The notes: generated from the letters alone by a model not told the origin. A stretch of 64,000 nucleotides of DNA from Ruminobacter sp. (GCF_017940385.1 NZ_JAGAYS010000041.1); one strand, 5' to 3'; counted from the stretch's first letter, positions 9,871-64,000 are shown. Translations and numbers: made by a program.

Positions 9871-10290
9871 GTAATAAAAATCAATTATATTACTAATTAT
9901 GTGAGTTTGAGAAAGTTATCAAAAATAAATAATATTTTTGTTTTGGGTGTTTTGATGAAAAAATAGTCAATTAAAATCAAATAAAGTTATTTTAATTGTA
10001 TGAAAACAATTTCACTGATAGAGTATTAGGCCGTGATCGAACGGGTAAATGTCATAAACAGTTATGACGACTGGTAGTCAAATTTGAAATAATGATGCAT
10101 ATAAAAAGAGATTGTGCTCAAAATTTGACTTATTTGTTTATTTTTTTGGCTCGTTTTGTGGTTTACCATGGTAAATAAGCGCTCATGCGTCTTTCATTTG
10201 ATTTTAGAACCGTAAATCATAATAAAAATAAAAGCCAAATGGACAATTCTACATAATAACGAATGGTTTAAAGCCTGTAGGACAGTGAAT

Positions 10291-11475
10291 ATGAAAAAAG
10301 CATTATTATCCGTTATGGTTGCGGCCGTTGCCCTGGGTGGAAGCAGTGCTGCTTTTGCTTCAGGTATTGAGGGTACGCATCTTACTGTGTGGGTTAACGG
10401 CGATAAGTCGTATAAAGGAATCGAACAGGTCGGTGAAAAGTTTGAAAAGGACACCGGCATAAAGGTTATTGTGGAACATCCGGAACAGCCTGTCGTGAAA
10501 TTTCTGCAGCACGCGGCTTCAGGAAACGGCCCGGATTTGTTTATGTGGGCTCACGACCGCTTCGGTGAATGGGTTGAATTCGGCTTGCTGACTCCGATTG
10601 AACCTACTCCCGAAGAGCTGGAAAGGTTCCAGCCTGTGGCCTGGGACGCAATGAAGGTTAAGGATAAGTACTACGGCTTTCCTGTGTCTATAGAGGCAAT
10701 TGCACTTATATGTAATAAGGATCTCGTGCCTGAGGCTCCTAAGACGTTTGAAGAGTTCTTTGAACTGGACGATGAGCTGCAGAAGAGTGGAAAGCACGCT
10801 CTGGTGTGGGATTTTAATGACGGATACTTTACATATCCGATACTTTCAGCCAACGGCGGATACTCATTTAAGAAGAATGAAAAGGGTGAGTATGACGTAA
10901 CTACTACCGGTATAAATGATCCGGGTGCGGTTAAGGGGTTGGAGTACATAGTTAAATTAATTAGGGAAGATCATCTGCAGAAATGGCAGGAATTTCCTAA
11001 GATGGAAAAGAAGTTTATTGACGGTGACGTTGGCTGTGTAATAAACGGTGCATGGGGATGGGAAAGATACAGTAAGCTGAATTATTCCGTTAATCCGTTC
11101 CCTACACTTGACGGTAAGCAGGGAAGGCCTTTTGTGGGCGTGCTGGGCATGACCATCAACAGTGCTTCTCCTAACAAGGAAATGGCAAGAAAATTCCTTG
11201 TTGACTATCTGCTGACCGATGAAGGTCTGGAAAAGATGGATAACGACCGTCCGCTCGGTGCGGTTGCACTTAAGTCGTATCAGGCAAGGCTTGAGAAGGA
11301 TCCGAGAATTGCCGTGACGATGTACAATGCGGAGCACGGTGACATTATGCCTAACATACCGGAAATGAACAGATTCTGGAGTTCTCTGCAGACAGCGCTG
11401 AAAAATGCCACAACCGGGCGTCAGTCTGCAAAGAAGGCGTTGAAGATAGCTGAGGAACGTGTGCTGAAGAAGTAA
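10291..11475 (+). CDS. malE: Maltose/maltodextrin-binding periplasmic protein, paralog 1
   Basis: It has a signal peptide (MKKALLSVMVAAVALGGSSAAFA) and MalE-type blocks ([74 protein letters not shown]). ATG 10291 has AGGA 9 nt upstream. The ORF-track start GTG 10285 is less likely. Confidence 0.9.
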   Translation: MKKALLSVMVAAVALGGSSAAFASGIEGTHLTVWVNGDKSYKGIEQVGEKFEKDTGIKVIVEHPEQPVVKFLQHAASGNGPDLFMWAHDRFGEWVEFGLLTPIEPTPEELERFQPVAWDAMKVKDKYYGFPVSIEAIALICNKDLVPEAPKTFEEFFELDDELQKSGKHALVWDFNDGYFTYPILSANGGYSFKKNEKGEYDVTTTGINDPGAVKGLEYIVKLIREDHLQKWQEFPKMEKKFIDGDVGCVINGAWGWERYSKLNYSVNPFPTLDGKQGRPFVGVLGMTINSASPNKEMARKFLVDYLLTDEGLEKMDNDRPLGAVALKSYQARLEKDPRIAVTMYNAEHGDIMPNIPEMNRFWSSLQTALKNATTGRQSAKKALKIAEERVLKK

Positions 11476-11718: not shown

Positions 11719-12900
11719 ATGAAAAAAACTATTTTAGCTACTGTTGTAGGCTTAGCTGCTTTTGGTTTCGCACAGGTTGCTTCTGCATCAGGTATTGAAG
11801 AAGGTCAGTTAACCATTTGGGTTAACGGTGATAAGTCATATGACGGTATTGCTAAGGTTGGTAAGAAGTTCGAAGAAGCTACCGGCGTTAAGGTAACCGT
11901 TGCTCACCCAGACCAGGTAGAAGTTAAGTTCCAGCAGAACGCAGCTTCAGGTAACGGTCCAGATATTTTCATGTGGGCACATGACCGTTACGGTGAATGG
12001 GTTAAGTCAGGTCTTTTAACCCCAATCGAACCAACCAAGGAAGAATTAAGCAAGTTCCAGGACGTTGCATGGAAGGCTATGACTGTAGACGGTAAGATTT
12101 ACGGTTACCCAGTATCTATCGAAGCTATTGCCTTAATCTGTAACAAGGATATCGTTCCAGAAGCTCCAAAGAGCTTTGAAGAATTCATTGCCCTTGACGA
12201 CAAGCTGAAGAAGGAAGGCAAGCGTGCAATTATGTGGGACTACAACAACGCATTCTTCAGTTACCCATTAATTTCTGCTAACGGCGGTTATGCATTCAAG
12301 AGAAACGCTGACGGCAGCTACGACGTTAAGGACTCAGGTGTTAACAATGACGGCGCTAAGGCCGGTGTTCAGTTCCTCGTTGATTTAATCAAGGGCGATC
12401 ACATGCAGAAGGGTGCTGACTACGGTATCATGGAATCAAGCTTCGTTAACGGTAAGGTTGCTTGTATCATCAACGGACCATGGTCATGGGGTCAGTACAC
12501 AAAGGTTAACTACAGTGTTAACCCAATCCCAACCCTTAAGGGCAACCCAGGTAAGCCATTCGTAGGTGTTCAGGGTATGACCATCAACCAGGCTTCTCCA
12601 AATAAGGACCTTGCTAAGGAATTCTTACTCAACTACCTCCTCACCGATGAAGGTCTTGATAAGATGAACAAGGACAAGCCATTAGGTGCTGCTGCTCTCA
12701 AGTCTTTCGAAGCTAAGCTTGAACAGGATCCAAGAATCAAGGTAACCATGAGCAACGCTAAGATTGGTGACCCAATGCCAAGCGTACCAGAAATGAACCG
12801 TTTCTGGAGTTCATTACAGACTGCTCTTAAGAATGCTACCACCGGTCGTCAGACCTTAGACGAAGCACTTAAGACTGCTGAAGATCGTATCGAAAAGTAA
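11719..12900 (+). CDS. malE: Maltose/maltodextrin-binding periplasmic protein, paralog 2 (first gene of the malEFGK unit)
   Basis: It has a signal peptide ([23 protein letters not shown]) and the same MalE blocks as paralog 1. By eye the two are roughly two-thirds identical. The SD AAGGAA lies 9 nt upstream. Its codon style (CCA, GGT, CGT, TTA) is shared with malFGK. Confidence 0.93.
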
Positions 12901-28456: not shown

Positions 28457-28531
28457 ATCATGAAAAAGCTTTCATGATGTTTAAAATTTGTTAAAATTAA
28501 CAAAATATTAAATCAGGAATAAGTCCTGATT
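28457..28531 (+). promoter_or_regulatory. Cluster of three perfect inverted repeats upstream of the giant surface-protein gene
   Basis: The first is 28457..28478 (atcatgaaa-aagc-tttcatgat, 9-4-9). The second is 28488..28503 (ttgttaa-aa-ttaacaa, 7-2-7). The third is 28511..28531 (aatcagga-ataag-tcctgatt, an 8-bp stem) followed by ttgtt. All lie 40-115 nt upstream of ATG 28573. Confidence 0.4.
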
Positions 28532-59968: not shown

Positions 59969-60202
59969 TTATCTGCGCAAGCTGTTACAGCCGGTCTTAT
60001 TGCCAAGTCTGCAGGATTTATTGAAGAATTCCTGAGCCTTTGAACCGTTCTTTGCCATTTCGGTACCGTACTTGTATACGACTGCGACTTTAAGGCTGTC
60101 TCGGCAAGACACTTCCGAGCGCTGCTTTTCGGCATGTGCATTATCTTTGGCGTGAGCATTGACGCTAAGGGCAGGATATATAAGCGCGGCAGGAAAAGAC
60201 AT
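59969..60202 (-). CDS. Small secreted Cys-containing protein with a single Sel1/Hcp-like repeat
   Basis: The 77-aa product has a signal-like N-terminus (MSFPAALIYPALSVNAHA). It ends in AKNGSKAQEFFNKSCRLGNKTGCNSL, which resembles the Sel1/Helicobacter Hcp repeat motif (A..yf.kaC.lg...gC). Confidence 0.4.
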   Translation of the reverse strand: MSFPAALIYPALSVNAHAKDNAHAEKQRSEVSCRDSLKVAVVYKYGTEMAKNGSKAQEFFNKSCRLGNKTGCNSLRR

Positions 60203-60246
60203 TACAAGCAGGGAATGTTGTACATGGATTTATGTGTCGGGCATAA

Positions 60247-60278
60247 AGAAACCTGAATGCCGGGGCATTCAGGTTTCT
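60247..60278 (-). terminator. Terminator hairpin after ettA
   Basis: A perfect 14-bp stem pairs agaaacctgaatgc with gcattcaggtttct (loop cggg). On the minus strand only a short TTT follows. Confidence 0.6.
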
Positions 60279-60307
60279 GAAGTTAATAAAGCAGATGAGT
60301 CATCGCA

Positions 60308-61972
60308 TTAGGCAATGTTTCTGAACTTTCTGCGGTGCGGCTTAACTGCTTCTTCACCATAGGTCTTAACCTTCCATTCTTCGTATTCGGTAAAGTTGCC
60401 GTCGAAGAAAGTTATCTTTCCGTCATCCTGATAGTCCAGAATGTGGGTGGCTATACGGTCAAGGAACCATCTGTCGTGTGAAATTACCATTGCTGATCCC
60501 GGGAATTCAAGCAGGGCGTTTTCCAGGGCTCGCAGGGTTTCAACGTCCAGATCGTTGGTAGGTTCGTCGAGAAGCAGAAGGTTACCGCCTGCCTGTAAAA
60601 GCTTGGCAAGATGCAGTCTTCCTCTTTCACCGCCTGACAGGTCGCCGACACGCTTCTGCTGATCGGTACCCTTGAAGTTGAAGCGGCCGATGTAGGCACG
60701 GCTTGGGATTTCATAGTTGCCGATGCGGAGAATGTCCTGTCCCTGAGAGATTTCCTCGTAGACGGTCTTTTTGTTGTCCATGCTGTCACGGAACTGACCT
60801 ACGTCGGCCACAACCACGGTTTCACCGAGGGTGATGGTACCTGAGTCCGGCTTTTCGCTGCCGGTGATCATTCTGAACAGGGTGGACTTACCGGCACCGT
60901 TGGCACCGATGATACCGATAATGGCTCCCTTAGGTACGGTGAAGCTCAGATCATTGATGAGCGTTCTGCCTTCATAGCCCTTGGTGAGGTTTGTGACCTC
61001 AAGAACCTTGTCACCGAGTCTTGGTCCAGGCGGAATGAAAAGTTCATTGGTTTCGTTACGCTTCTGGTAGTCAACGCTGTTGAGTTCTTCAAAGCGAGCC
61101 AGACGGGCCTTGGATTTTGCGTGTCTGCCCTTAGGAGACTGTCTGACCCATTCAAGTTCTTTCTGAATGGACTTCTGACGGGCGTTTTCACTTGCCTGTT
61201 CATGGGCAAGACGGGCTTCCTTCTGTTCCAGCCATGAAGAATAGTTGCCTTCCCAAGGAATGCCTTCGCCGCGGTCAAGTTCCAGAATCCAACCGGCTAC
61301 GTTATCAAGGAAGTAACGGTCGTGGGTAATGGCTACCACGGTGCCTGAGTACTGGTTGAGGAAGTTTTCCAGCCATGCTACTGATTCGGCATCCAGATGG
61401 TTTGTAGGTTCGTCAAGAAGCAGCATGTCAGGATGTTCAAGAAGAAGGCGGCATAAGGCCACACGTCTTCTTTCACCACCTGAAAGAACCTTGATTTTGG
61501 CATCTGGATCAGGAAGTCTCAGTGCATCGGCAGCCTGTTCTATCTGGTTGTCAATGTTGTGTCCGTCACCGGCCTGAATAATTGCTTCAAGTTCAGCCTG
61601 TTCAGCCGCCAGAGCATCAAAGTCGGCATCAGGATCGGCATAGGCTGCATAAACTTCGTCAAGACGGGTAAGTGCTCTTTTTACGTCGCCGAGAGCTTCT
61701 TCTACTGTTTCTTTTACTGTTTTTTCAGGATCAAGCTGCGGTTCCTGTGGAAGATAGCCGATTTTAATTCCCGGCTGAGGACGGGCTTCACCTTCAATGT
61801 CGGTATCAATACCGGCCATGATTTTTAAAAGGGTTGATTTACCGGCACCGTTAAGACCCAGAACACCGATCTTGGCTCCTGGGAAAAACGATAGGGAAAT
61901 ATCTTTTAAAATGTGTCGCTTAGGCGGTACGATCTTGCCTACGCGGTTCATTGTATAGATGAATTGTGCCAT
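60308..61972 (-). CDS. ettA: Energy-dependent translational throttle protein EttA (ABC-F)
   Basis: MAQFIYTMNRVGKIVPPKRHILKDISLSFFPGAKIGVLGLNGAGKSTLL is essentially the E. coli EttA N-terminus. Two ABC cassettes are present (LSGGERRR and LSGGERGR). Confidence 0.96.
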   Translation of the reverse strand: MAQFIYTMNRVGKIVPPKRHILKDISLSFFPGAKIGVLGLNGAGKSTLLKIMAGIDTDIEGEARPQPGIKIGYLPQEPQLDPEKTVKETVEEALGDVKRALTRLDEVYAAYADPDADFDALAAEQAELEAIIQAGDGHNIDNQIEQAADALRLPDPDAKIKVLSGGERRRVALCRLLLEHPDMLLLDEPTNHLDAESVAWLENFLNQYSGTVVAITHDRYFLDNVAGWILELDRGEGIPWEGNYSSWLEQKEARLAHEQASENARQKSIQKELEWVRQSPKGRHAKSKARLARFEELNSVDYQKRNETNELFIPPGPRLGDKVLEVTNLTKGYEGRTLINDLSFTVPKGAIIGIIGANGAGKSTLFRMITGSEKPDSGTITLGETVVVADVGQFRDSMDNKKTVYEEISQGQDILRIGNYEIPSRAYIGRFNFKGTDQQKRVGDLSGGERGRLHLAKLLQAGGNLLLLDEPTNDLDVETLRALENALLEFPGSAMVISHDRWFLDRIATHILDYQDDGKITFFDGNFTEYEEWKVKTYGEEAVKPHRRKFRNIA

Positions 61973-62198
61973 ATTTTTCCTATGGGTTGGTTAATGAAAT
62001 TTTGAGCGTATTTTACCATAAAGAGCTCTTTTCCTCCATATCGTAAGAGTCTTATTGACATGCCTGACACGGTCAGATCACGGGGAGTTGAGCTGAAATG
62101 AGAATGATTGTGAATAACTGTCTTTTCGACGGATGATAAAGCGGACTGCATGTTTGTGCAGTTCGCTTTGAGAGATGGCGGTTGGATTATCTGAAAGG

Positions 62199-62981
62199 CT
62201 ACGGCACCATAAGAATTTCTTCGGAGAAAAGTACGGCCCTGCCCGCAATCTTTACCCTGTCGCCGCGGATTCCTGTGTACAGAATGCCGGTTCTTTTTGA
62301 GGCCTGAAAACAGGTTAATTCCTTTCTTCCGAAACGTGAGCACCAGTAGGGAGTAATCATGCAGTGGGTACTTCCGGTTACCGGATCTTCTGGAATATTC
62401 AGCTTTGGGGCAAAAACCCTGCTTACGCAGTCATATTCACTGCTGTCTGACGGAGCCGTGACGGCGGTCAGCAGTCCTTCAAGATGATTCAGCCTGTGGA
62501 GATCCGGATTAAGTTTCCTGACTGATTCGGCATCGGGAAGAACCAGGAGCAGGTCCCTGTCTATGTATGCTTCAAGAGGCCTGACGCCGAGAGCTTCCGT
62601 CATCTCGTCGGTTACGGGGATTTTTTTGAGGTTATATGCCGGGAAGTCCATTTCATAGACGTCGCCGTTACGTTTTACCGTAAGATCACCGACCTGTGAG
62701 GTGAATGTTACCGATGAACTGAATTTTTCCTGATAATTAAGAATGACAAATGAAGTGCCGAGAGTGGCATGACCGCAGAAATCAATTTCTCCGCCGGGAG
62801 TGAACCAGCGTAAATGGTATGAAGTGCCTTCCTTTACGGCAAATGCGGTTTCGGAAAAATTGTTCTCGGCTGCAATATTCTGCATCAGCGCATCATCGGG
62901 CCAGTCATTCATAACGCATACAGCGGCCTGATTGCCGCTGAACAGGTGGTCGGTAAATGCATCAACAACATACTGTTTCAT
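62199..62981 (-). CDS. PhzF-family isomerase/epimerase-like protein (YddE type)
   Basis: It begins MKQYVVDAFTDHLFSGNQAAVCV and contains NFSETAF and FCGHATLG, the family-typical blocks. The length is 260 aa. Confidence 0.8.
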   Translation of the reverse strand: MKQYVVDAFTDHLFSGNQAAVCVMNDWPDDALMQNIAAENNFSETAFAVKEGTSYHLRWFTPGGEIDFCGHATLGTSFVILNYQEKFSSSVTFTSQVGDLTVKRNGDVYEMDFPAYNLKKIPVTDEMTEALGVRPLEAYIDRDLLLVLPDAESVRKLNPDLHRLNHLEGLLTAVTAPSDSSEYDCVSRVFAPKLNIPEDPVTGSTHCMITPYWCSRFGRKELTCFQASKRTGILYTGIRGDRVKIAGRAVLFSEEILMVP

Positions 62982-63245
62982 GGTAATCTCCGTTCATGGA
63001 ACATTTAATTACAATATAAACGGAGTCCAGGCAGGCTTCAAGATTTATGCGTAAGTGTGCTTTCTCTTTGGTGAGCGGGCCTTCAAAATAAAGGCTTACC
63101 GCCGTGAGCCCCGGACAGAATGTGTTAACAGTCCTGACGCAGATACTGATTTAAACTGTTCGCATCTCTCTGAATACGGCGAACATGCGGACCGCATGGA
63201 AACAATAGGGATGATAATGGGAAAAGGCTGTGTCATAAAACACAA

Positions 63246-63280
63246 GTCCCTCTCTTAACCAACCTTAATAAGAGAGGGAC
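63246..63280 (-). terminator. Intrinsic terminator closing the small-peptide transcription unit (minus strand)
   Basis: A perfect 12-bp stem pairs gtccctctctta (63246..63257) with taagagagggac (63269..63280). On the minus strand TTGTGTTTTAT follows. Confidence 0.65.
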
Positions 63281-63293
63281 GTTTTCTGTTCGA

Positions 63294-63383
63294 TTAGATT
63301 TTTGGAGTTGGATTTCTTTTGCCTGAAGACTCACTCGGGAGTGGTATTTCAGGTCTTGAATTTGTTTTGTTCAGTGAAATCAT
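63294..63383 (-). CDS. 29-codon ORF downstream of the peptide array; it shares the array's ribosome-binding context
   Basis: ATG 63383..63381 is preceded by TTGAGGTATTTGCT, compared with AGAGGTATTTAAA before each array gene. The translation is MISLNKTNSRPEIPLPSESSGKRNPTPKI, with stop TAA 63296..63294. Confidence 0.3.
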   Translation of the reverse strand: MISLNKTNSRPEIPLPSESSGKRNPTPKI

Positions 63384-63418
63384 AGCAAATACCTCAATAT
63401 TAAATTCTTTAGATTAAT

Positions 63419-63468
63419 ACCGGGTGCTTATTTGCTGTGCTTTAGGAATTCTGTTTAAGCACGCCGGT
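63419..63468 (-). other. Long hairpin between the peptide array and the 29-codon ORF
   Basis: accgggtgctta (63419..63430) pairs with taagcacgccggt (63456..63468). That gives 12 bp with one bulged nucleotide and a ~25-nt loop. Confidence 0.5.
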
Positions 63469-63575
63469 ATTGCCTGTACAACATGTATGAACCATACATT
63501 AGCCCCGCGACTTATATTTCTGATTTTGGGTTTCTCGGGATTTTTGTTCAGGAATCTCAAACCTGATGGGTAGTC

Positions 63576-63656
63576 TTACTTAACGTAACTGAAGTGGTAT
63601 TCACGAGTTACGGGAGCGTAAGCGCTGCCTTCATTCTTCTTCATAAAGTATCTCAT
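63576..63656 (-). CDS. Small peptide gene, array copy 1 (26 aa)
   Basis: The ATG at 63656 is preceded by GAGAGGTATTTAAA. The translation is MRYFMKKNEGSAYAPVTREYHFSYVK, with stop TAA 63578..63576. Confidence 0.55.
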   Translation of the reverse strand: MRYFMKKNEGSAYAPVTREYHFSYVK

Positions 63657-63702
63657 TTTAAATACCTCTCTGGGTTAACAAAAACTTCCGGATTATTCTG
63701 AC

Positions 63703-63783
63703 TTACTTAACGTAACTGAAGTGATATTCACGAGTTACGGGAGCGTAAGCGCTGCCTTCATTCTTCTTCATAAAGTATCTCAT
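63703..63783 (-). CDS. Small peptide gene, array copy 2 (26 aa)
   Basis: It encodes the same peptide as copy 1 despite one third-position difference (TAC/TAT Tyr). It has the same SD context. Confidence 0.55.
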   Translation of the reverse strand: MRYFMKKNEGSAYAPVTREYHFSYVK

Positions 63784-63831
63784 TTTAAATACCTCTCTGC
63801 GTGTTAACAAAAACCGTCTGATGACCTGAGC

Positions 63832-63912
63832 TTACTTAACGTAATTGAAGTGATATTCACGGGTTACTGGAGCGTAAGCATTGTTTTCATTCTTCTTCAT
63901 AAAGTATCTCAT
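63832..63912 (-). CDS. Small peptide gene, array copy 3 (26 aa)
   Basis: The translation is MRYFMKKNENNAYAPVTREYHFNYVK. It differs from copy 1 by G10N, S11N and S23N plus three synonymous third-position changes. The SD is GTGAGGTATTAAAA. Confidence 0.55.
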   Translation of the reverse strand: MRYFMKKNENNAYAPVTREYHFNYVK

Positions 63913-63964
63913 TTTTAATACCTCACTGTAGGTTAACAAAAACTTCCGGTTGACTTATCTTACT

Positions 63965-64000
63965 TTACTTGACGTAGCTGAAGTAATATTCACGGGTTAC
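63965..64000 (-). CDS. Small peptide gene, array copy 4 (C-terminal 11 codons only; truncated by the window edge)
   Basis: It reads ...VTREYYFSYVK followed by TAA (63967..63965). It has H21Y plus synonymous changes relative to copy 1. Confidence 0.45.
   Translation of the reverse strand, partial: VTREYYFSYVK

Follow-up and report, generated by a model that had tools for sequence, protein, structure and literature searches.

A unit of 26 codons is repeated on the minus strand at one end of a 64,000-nucleotide stretch of DNA from Ruminobacter sp. (GCF_017940385.1, NZ_JAGAYS010000041.1; the whole stretch is hereafter called the window). The questions raised by this locus are whether units of this size are genes and, if so, what purpose would be served by several copies of nearly the same peptide. 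The original prediction had described them as a candidate multi-copy precursor or signalling-peptide locus.

Layout of the array and its coding constraint

The tandem array predicted at 63576-64000 was found on the minus strand, with three complete copies and one truncated copy, and its periods of 127, 129 and 133 bp were recovered. Tandem Repeats Finder detected one array (63575-64000; period 129, 3.3 copies, 87% matches, score 592). Ten metagenome contigs were retrieved via the PhzF-family protein encoded at 62199-62981. Among them, L001, L003, L006 and L007 corresponded to window positions 60001-64000 over all 4000 bases with zero mismatches, and L009 was identical to the window over the 2341 bases covered. 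As L001 is identical to the window end, any window coordinate x equals L001 coordinate 72982 - x, and extension of the contig past 64000 revealed more copies. The array is indeed cut by the window edge, as had been proposed, and the minimum of four copies given at that time becomes a total of five. The complete five-gene array occupies L001 8810-9406 and ends 172 bases past the window edge, while the full copy 2 is found, along with copy 1, the promoter and the hairpin at the 5' end, at L001 8651-9017 (window coordinates 63965-64331). The genes are as follows.

63576..63656, minus strand: copy 5, which closes the array, 26 codons, ATG start and TAA stop, peptide MRYFMKKNEGSAYAPVTREYHFSYVK
63665-63670, minus strand: Shine-Dalgarno sequence of copy 5, GAGAGG
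63703..63783, minus strand: copy 4, same peptide as copy 5 (MRYFMKKNEGSAYAPVTREYHFSYVK)
63832..63912, minus strand: copy 3, peptide MRYFMKKNENNAYAPVTREYHFNYVK
63965..64000, minus strand: copy 2, 3' end only (last 11 codons, ...VTREYYFSYVK, and the stop), full peptide MRYFLKNSENKTYAPVTREYYFSYVK
Beyond the window edge, minus strand: copy 1, peptide MRYFLKKNENNAYAPVTREYYFNYVK (metagenome contig L001)

Translation reproduced the replacements reported for copy 3 (G10N, S11N and S23N) and for the partial copy (H21Y), and the two peptides said to be identical despite a third-position difference proved to be separated by one synonymous change (TAT/TAC). Elsewhere, copy number reached four in some strains and six or seven in relatives of RUG065. 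Gene calling on the contigs examined had missed the array genes, and the Succinimonas amylolytica member is listed at NCBI only as a mis-started 40-residue 'hypothetical protein'.

Coding constraint was assessed on 22 copies from four genomes, namely the window species (L001), Ruminobacter sp. RUG10948 (L011), R. amylophilus DSM 1361 (L012) and the uncultured proteobacterium RUG065 (L013), all of them exactly 26 codons long. Variable columns represented 7/25, 7/25 and 16/25 at codon positions 1, 2 and 3, respectively, and 1, 3 and 8 of 14 over the C-terminal 14 codons. The between-genome pN/pS of the sense frame was 0.25. The antisense ORFs present in the ORF list (exact-codon register) had a pN/pS of 2.27 and contained stop codons in some copies, and were rejected as genes; the wobble-sharing antisense frame gave a similar ratio (0.247), yet with two to four stops per copy inspected. 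No copy was disrupted by a frameshift or premature stop in the orthologous arrays of loci L001-L044, where 147 of 147 copies were intact and ended in TAA, with length variants all in frame (e.g. a two-residue insertion in L043). One copy in L046 had a TGA stop.

A Shine-Dalgarno sequence (GAGAGG or GTGAGG in the window) preceded every ATG by 7-9 nt in every species, and the remaining spacer diverged. Between copies of the window species, coding sequences were 80-99% identical and spacers 54-81%. The spacers had been described as divergent apart from the ribosome-binding block and a GTTTTTGTTAAC box; the first of these exceptions was found everywhere, whereas the box occurred only in the window species and in RUG10948 (L011), a close relative, and was missing in R. 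amylophilus and RUG065.

Taken at the sequence level, the codon-position bias and the pN/pS of 0.25 show that the array genes encode protein and that purifying selection acts on the peptide, as originally predicted. The opposite possibility, of incidental ORFs in a non-coding repeat or in a regulatory RNA to which proteins bind at repeated sites, could account for GA-rich Shine-Dalgarno-like motifs recurring every ~129 nt, but it is hardly credible in view of a substitution pattern that is that of coding sequence, of the integrity of all copies across genera and of the lack of any Rfam match in a scan of the window and three loci.

Distribution and properties of the peptide family

The family was extended by searching 1.84 billion representative proteins with a profile, by a metagenome scan with the pattern PVTR[EQ]Y.FSYVK, and by an alignment search of a 5.8-billion-protein collection, for which two concatenated copies served as another query. 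The alignment search yielded 30 proteins at E <= 1, the weakest two being probably chance matches. Members followed the consensus M[KR]x[LF]x[KN][KR]...[LIY]APVTRxYxF[SN]YVK and came from Ruminobacter, from Succinimonas amylolytica and from uncultured gammaproteobacteria related to them, in arrays of 1-7 copies; contig L028 held three arrays. Besides the S. amylolytica member (MKRLFNRYVEAERLAPVTRSYFFSYVK), relatives included MKRLFNRYVPVNSLAPVTREYFFSYVK, MRMLRNMFAANNEVNAIAPVTRQYGFSYVK, which co-occurred with the diverged paralogue MKNLLKAVKPNTLPPFTKAYNFSYVKNVGNMQF, as well as MRYFIKKVNNAALAPVTRDYNFSYVKQNF and MKIFRKLFIVKNEELTIAPVTREYNFSYVK. Residues P15, T17, Y20, F22, Y24 and V25 were invariant and A14, V16 and K26 nearly so, position 19 was variable (E/Q/A/D/S/K), and the N-terminus kept the basic-hydrophobic pattern M[KR]x[LF]x[KN][KR].

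Every host with readable gene content looked gammaproteobacterial, and the named hosts were Succinivibrionaceae, to which the clades without names probably also belong. The family is specific to one bacterial lineage. The pattern used to scan genome contigs demanded Tyr13 and consequently returned matches from the Ruminobacter clade only, so that the wider family is under-sampled at the level of genomes. The family motif had no match in the viral contigs scanned.

When both small proteins of the operon (the second is described below) were compared with NCBIfam, Pfam, PHROGs, PADLOC and PDB sequences, only chance-level matches were obtained, such as RhoL (E = 0.076) and lentiviral Vif (E = 0.13). 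Neither a known small-protein family nor, in Rfam, a known non-coding repeat was thus matched, and a literature search by peptide strings and keywords retrieved no relevant report. The 26-residue peptides form a real, conserved and new small-protein family that was previously unannotated.

The peptide has a pI of 9.6, a GRAVY of -0.87 and 23% aromatic residues, and is devoid of any hydrophobic stretch (best 11-residue Kyte-Doolittle window, -0.50), in agreement with its earlier description as hydrophilic and lacking a transmembrane segment or signal peptide. An AlphaFold2 model of a 35-residue extended form consisted of two helices at a low pLDDT of 64, lowest over the conserved core. Neither a conserved glycine nor a glycyl-radical motif was found in the peptides.

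These values also bear out the statement that the array is not a type I toxin locus. The Ldr, Ibs/Sib and Zor/Orz loci of enterobacteria likewise consist of tandem units that each contain an unannotated ORF (18-35 codons), but their toxins are transmembrane and paired with antisense RNAs, whereas the array peptide has no hydrophobic segment. A conserved antisense element was sought in the array spacers, where nothing but the Shine-Dalgarno sequence was conserved between species; the promoter scan gave one weak antisense match.

Genomic neighbourhood and the search for partner genes

Maturation or export genes had been expected upstream of the array, beyond position 64000. Instead, a promoter was found there, and ~470 bp of AT-rich non-coding DNA separated the array from a gene for a membrane-anchored Sel1/TPR protein (486 aa), behind which came frdABCD, psd and rsgA. 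On its downstream side, the array was followed by a second small ORF, a strong hairpin with a T-rich run, a PhzF-family gene, a gene for a 554-aa ABC-F protein and purL. The ABC-F protein had two ABC_tran domains and an ABC_tran_Xtn domain, without a membrane domain, which is an EttA-type pattern. Neighbours varied by clade as listed below, and none was common to the at least eight different genomic contexts.

Window species: Sel1/TPR; PhzF-EttA
R. amylophilus: Sel1/TPR; EttA
RUG065: purL; TerC on the opposite strand
L016-L020: PflA (divergent); prfA-prmC-kdsA-prfC
L021, L022, L037: PflA (same strand); unassigned 312-aa gene
L023: UmuD; HTH protein
L024, L046: Lnt; epimerase-like protein
L033, L041: subtilase lipoprotein; apparent RecN (named by eye)
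L028, L035: diversity-generating retroelement (DGR) cassette
L042: giant PKD/alpha-amylase genes
S. amylolytica: histidine kinase; ankyrin protein; sigma-54 response regulator

Within ~10 kb of the array, no maturase, RRE protein, peptidase or exporter was found in at least eight different contexts, including those of the window species, R. amylophilus, RUG065, S. amylolytica and four further clades. A single ORF of the 64 kb window contained a CxxxCxxC motif; judged by its N-terminus, the product looks like RlmN. The only radical-SAM protein encoded beside the array was PflA, the pyruvate formate-lyase activase (306 bits against TIGR02493, cut-off 232); it was discarded as a maturase, since by score it is the housekeeping enzyme, it adjoins the array in two related clades only and the peptide has no glycyl-radical motif. 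The Sel1/TPR protein was likewise rejected as a partner, since it does not adjoin the array in RUG065, in Succinimonas or in other clades, as was a link to the translation factors EttA, RF1 and RF3, which are neighbours in some contexts only. No binding partner was pointed to by gene context.

The proposal of a RiPP precursor or pheromone locus is consequently unsupported by gene context. The peptides could still be precursors of a RiPP or of a peptide-derived cofactor matured by unlinked enzymes, with the C-terminal YxFSYVK/APVTR as the modified core. Such precursors would be consistent with many near-identical tandem copies, with a Tyr/Phe-rich C-terminal core that is invariant next to a variable N-terminal half, with a total length close to that of PqqA-type precursors and with anaerobic hosts, in which radical-SAM chemistry is plausible. 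PqqA and the precursors of streptide and darobactin also derive from very short genes, sometimes multi-copy, and contain an invariant core with aromatic residues; they nevertheless adjoin maturase and export genes, whereas none was linked to the array in the contexts examined, and no NCBIfam precursor model matched. With an RlmN-like protein as the sole radical-SAM candidate of the window and PflA as the only adjacent one, we consider this origin unlikely. The invariant aromatic C-terminal core in tandem copies nonetheless also fits the precursor of a defined modified product, and in this respect counts against the explanation preferred below. A PQQ-type precursor in the strict sense was rejected because Glu19 is not conserved. 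If the peptide were modified or exported after all, the locus would represent a RiPP or peptide system with maturation genes located away from the precursor genes.

Export without modification was also considered, in the form of leaderless antimicrobial or signal peptides resembling phenol-soluble modulins (PSMs) or leaderless multi-peptide bacteriocins and released via an unlinked transporter, vesicles or lysis. The PSM alpha operon of Staphylococcus aureus and the operon of the four-peptide leaderless bacteriocin aureocin A70 comprise several tandem cistrons of 20-31 codons without signal or leader peptides. The array shares with them small cistrons with their own ribosome-binding sites, a stand-alone operon apparently driven directly by a transcription factor and under tight transcriptional control, and genes routinely missed by annotation, and its product is cationic. 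Yet PSM alpha and aureocin A70 are hydrophobic or amphipathic helices of Gram-positive bacteria with a dedicated ABC exporter, whereas the array peptide is hydrophilic and aromatic-rich, has no confident amphipathic helix or sequence similarity to them, and belongs to Gram-negative anaerobes, where two membranes would have to be crossed. No ABC exporter or immunity gene was linked to the array, the sole nearby ABC protein having the EttA-type pattern. This alternative is accordingly given a small probability, below that of a modified precursor.

Transcription unit, gene dosage and palindrome sites

Comparison of the loci shows a predicted transcription unit that is conserved and self-contained, composed of palindromes, promoter, 5' hairpin, gene copies and terminator, and whose parts recur in all clades, Succinimonas amylolytica included. 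Upstream, two TGAAA-N4-TTTCA palindromes separated by 20 bp centre to centre (31 bp in L016) are followed by an AT-rich stretch. The promoter is a near-consensus sigma-70 promoter (-35 TTG(T/C)AA, 17-bp spacer, -10 TATCAT), and in the Ruminobacter, Succinimonas and L024 clades a CRP-like (T)GTG(A/C)-N6-TCACT sequence lies inside its 17-bp spacer. A stem-loop begins within 6-9 nt of the -10 element, and its sequence differs by clade (stems GAGCT/AGCTC, GGTC/GACC, GTGCTCA/TGAGCA, GTGAAC/GTTCAC, GAAAGA/TCTTTC and GTGAT/ATCAC). Within Ruminobacter, some 110 bp of promoter sequence hardly vary, and the promoter is more conserved than the spacers between array genes. At the other end of the unit, three further features were identified in the window.

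63419..63468, minus strand: predicted RNA stem ACCGGCGUGC...GCACCCGGU, in the spacer that separates the array from the second small gene
63294..63383, minus strand: second, unrelated small gene with its own Shine-Dalgarno sequence, in the same transcription unit, product MISLNKTNSRPEIPLPSESSGKRNPTPKI (29 aa)
63235..63280, minus strand: intrinsic terminator GTCCCTCTCTTA...TAAGAGAGGGAC with a T-rich run, closing the small-gene operon

The second small gene is restricted to the Ruminobacter clade, where it lies ~190 nt after the array and encodes a proline-rich protein of 27-29 residues (MITLKNSKPEIPLPSESSGKRNPPPKI in R. amylophilus, MNKNRNLYPRPEIPLPSESSRKRSIGPKI in RUG065). Over its last 20 codons, 10 of the 12 differences between the window species and R. 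amylophilus are at third positions. The predicted spacer stem is retained by four sequences, which come from three species and show one compensatory pair. In other clades, the array is directly followed by the terminator or by a diverged extra copy. The operon products are small proteins only, namely five 26-residue paralogues and, in Ruminobacter, the proline-rich protein. The terminator at 63235..63280 was read from the sequence, the consensus scan not having listed it; a hairpin and T-run follow the last small gene in every clade examined.

This arrangement bears on the possibility that the ORFs act in cis, as arrest or sensor sequences that load or stall ribosomes and whose peptide sequence matters in the exit tunnel. 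Products of 26-33 residues would fit inside the tunnel, conservation is strongest beside the stop codon, this codon is TAA in all copies of L001-L044, and translation-factor genes lie downstream in two contexts (EttA; prfA-prmC-prfC). TnaC and SpeFL (24-34 residues) similarly concentrate their conservation towards the C-terminus up to the stop, but they are single-copy leaders of a regulated operon, whereas the array has 1-7 copies, then a terminator, and no conserved downstream gene. As every clade has an intrinsic terminator behind the array, with downstream genes that differ or sit on the other strand, as five to seven copies are unprecedented among leader peptides, as most contexts lack translation-factor neighbours and as one L046 copy stops at TGA, a role as arrest peptides appears very improbable.

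The explanation preferred here, and held tentatively, is that the array is a dosage-amplified operon for an abundant, unmodified and probably intracellular small protein. Tandem amplification would serve dosage, in which case the cell would presumably make much of the peptide, and the combination of a near-consensus promoter, strong ribosome-binding sites and gene amplification suggests high expression. Stem-loops located at the very 5' terminus are known to protect an mRNA from RNase E, and the 5'-terminal hairpin may stabilise the mRNA of the array. Transcription could be set by a dimeric regulator binding the paired TGAAA-N4-TTTCA palindromes, which have the shape of a LacI-family operator, and a CRP-like TGTGc-N6-TCACt site would overlap the core promoter in several clades. 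The peptide itself would act free, unmodified and probably inside the cell, where it may bind a conserved cellular partner through the invariant C-terminal APVTRxYxFSYVK.

Ruminobacter and Succinimonas (Succinivibrionaceae) are major starch fermenters of the rumen, and the family is amplified up to seven-fold in them, yet invisible to standard annotation. The locus offers a clean and testable case of a dosage-amplified bacterial micropeptide, with R. amylophilus DSM 1361 as a culturable host. A possible link to starch was suggested by the distribution of the promoter palindrome, of which only two other perfect copies were found inside the 64 kb window.

10001..10014, plus strand: 14-bp palindrome TGAAAACAATTTCA, also present in the array promoter; the first MalE-like binding-protein gene follows after ~290 bp
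28461..28474, plus strand: 14-bp palindrome TGAAAAAGCTTTCA, ~100 bp upstream of the gene for a 1747-aa PKD-domain surface protein

In 1000 dinucleotide-preserving shuffles of the 10.7 kb of intergenic DNA, the mean number of palindrome matches was 0.05, and none of the shuffles (0/1000) reached the two observed. The site at 10001 is followed by two MalE-like genes and then by genes whose N-terminal sequences suggest the remaining components of a maltodextrin ABC transporter. In L042, the palindrome is found upstream of a gene whose 1702-aa product combines PKD, alpha-amylase and CBM26 domains. The palindrome agrees with the generic LacI-family operator pattern TGnAAnCGnTTnCA, several sites having a central CG.

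Given its positions upstream of MalE-like, PKD and alpha-amylase genes and its LacI-type shape, a starch- or maltodextrin-linked regulon that may include the small-protein operon is proposed, as a lead only, since it is based on three extra sites; the defined operator motif may then mark a starch-utilisation regulon. It is also conceivable, if doubtful, that the peptides serve, as substrate or as active form, an undescribed system of these anaerobic starch specialists: either as precursor of a new modified peptide or cofactor, derived from Tyr/Phe by enzymes encoded elsewhere, or as a very abundant micropeptide co-regulated with starch-utilisation genes that binds a core cellular machine, for instance the ribosome or the glucan-handling apparatus.

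A second small gene and antisense frames in the array operon

Between the tandem array of 26-codon genes and the intrinsic terminator that closes its operon lies a second small gene, which has its own Shine-Dalgarno site and is conserved in Ruminobacter amylophilus, where the differences are mostly synonymous. The gene carried no annotation, and its 29-aa product matched no family.

63294-63383, minus strand: second small gene, encoding MISLNKTNSRPEIPLPSESSGKRNPTPKI

The strand opposite the array genes also carries open reading frames, the longest of 84 codons, both in the window and in R. amylophilus DSM 1361 (contig L012).

Window 63594-63701, 63721-63807 and 63850-63918, plus strand: antisense ORFs across the array
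L012 5345-5575 and 5734-5988, plus strand: antisense ORFs across the array

Avoidance of TTA, CTA and TCA among the sense codons keeps the antisense frame open. The evolution of these ORFs is non-synonymous (pN/pS 2.27) and some copies break the frame; they are therefore artefacts and were rejected as genes.

Variation among array copies

The number of array copies was polymorphic in close relatives, with four, five or seven copies (contigs L002, L004, L029, L031 and L043, compared with L001 of the window species), and one copy in L043 contained an in-frame insertion of two residues. Two called proteins (P0001 and P0002) consisted of neighbouring copies fused in frame, which could be genuine recombinants or assembly collapses. 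In one clade, the last copy (L024 9164-9259; L046 8001-8096) had ...YVTGERC or ...YVSGEYC at its end in place of ...YVK, thereby gaining a C-terminal cysteine.

Recurrence of the promoter palindrome and other genomic contexts

The palindrome TGAAA-N4-TTTCA of the array promoter recurred upstream of other genes, in the window and in another genome (L042), possibly as the operator of a regulon for starch utilisation.

Window 10001-10014: palindrome upstream of a MalE-like transporter operon
Window 10291-11475 and 11719-12900, plus strand: two tandem paralogous genes for MalE-like solute-binding proteins
Window 28461-28474: palindrome upstream of the gene for a 1747-aa PKD surface protein
L042 6746-6759: palindrome upstream of a PKD/alpha-amylase/CBM26 gene

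Judging by the N-termini of their products, the genes downstream of the MalE-like pair appear to encode the permease and ATPase of a maltodextrin ABC transporter.

In a relative with a GC content of about 51%, three peptide arrays were interleaved with a diversity-generating retroelement cassette (L028 2452-9413; L035 3403-8400) made up of a reverse transcriptase, a bAvd-like protein and a pair of DUF6273 target proteins, of which one carried a fused Ser/Thr kinase domain. The array of Succinimonas amylolytica (L045 6242-12538) was flanked by a histidine kinase gene on one side and, on the other, by an ankyrin-repeat protein gene followed by a sigma-54-dependent response regulator gene, with purL adjoining, a setting reminiscent of the purL-glrK-glrR neighbourhood of E. 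coli.
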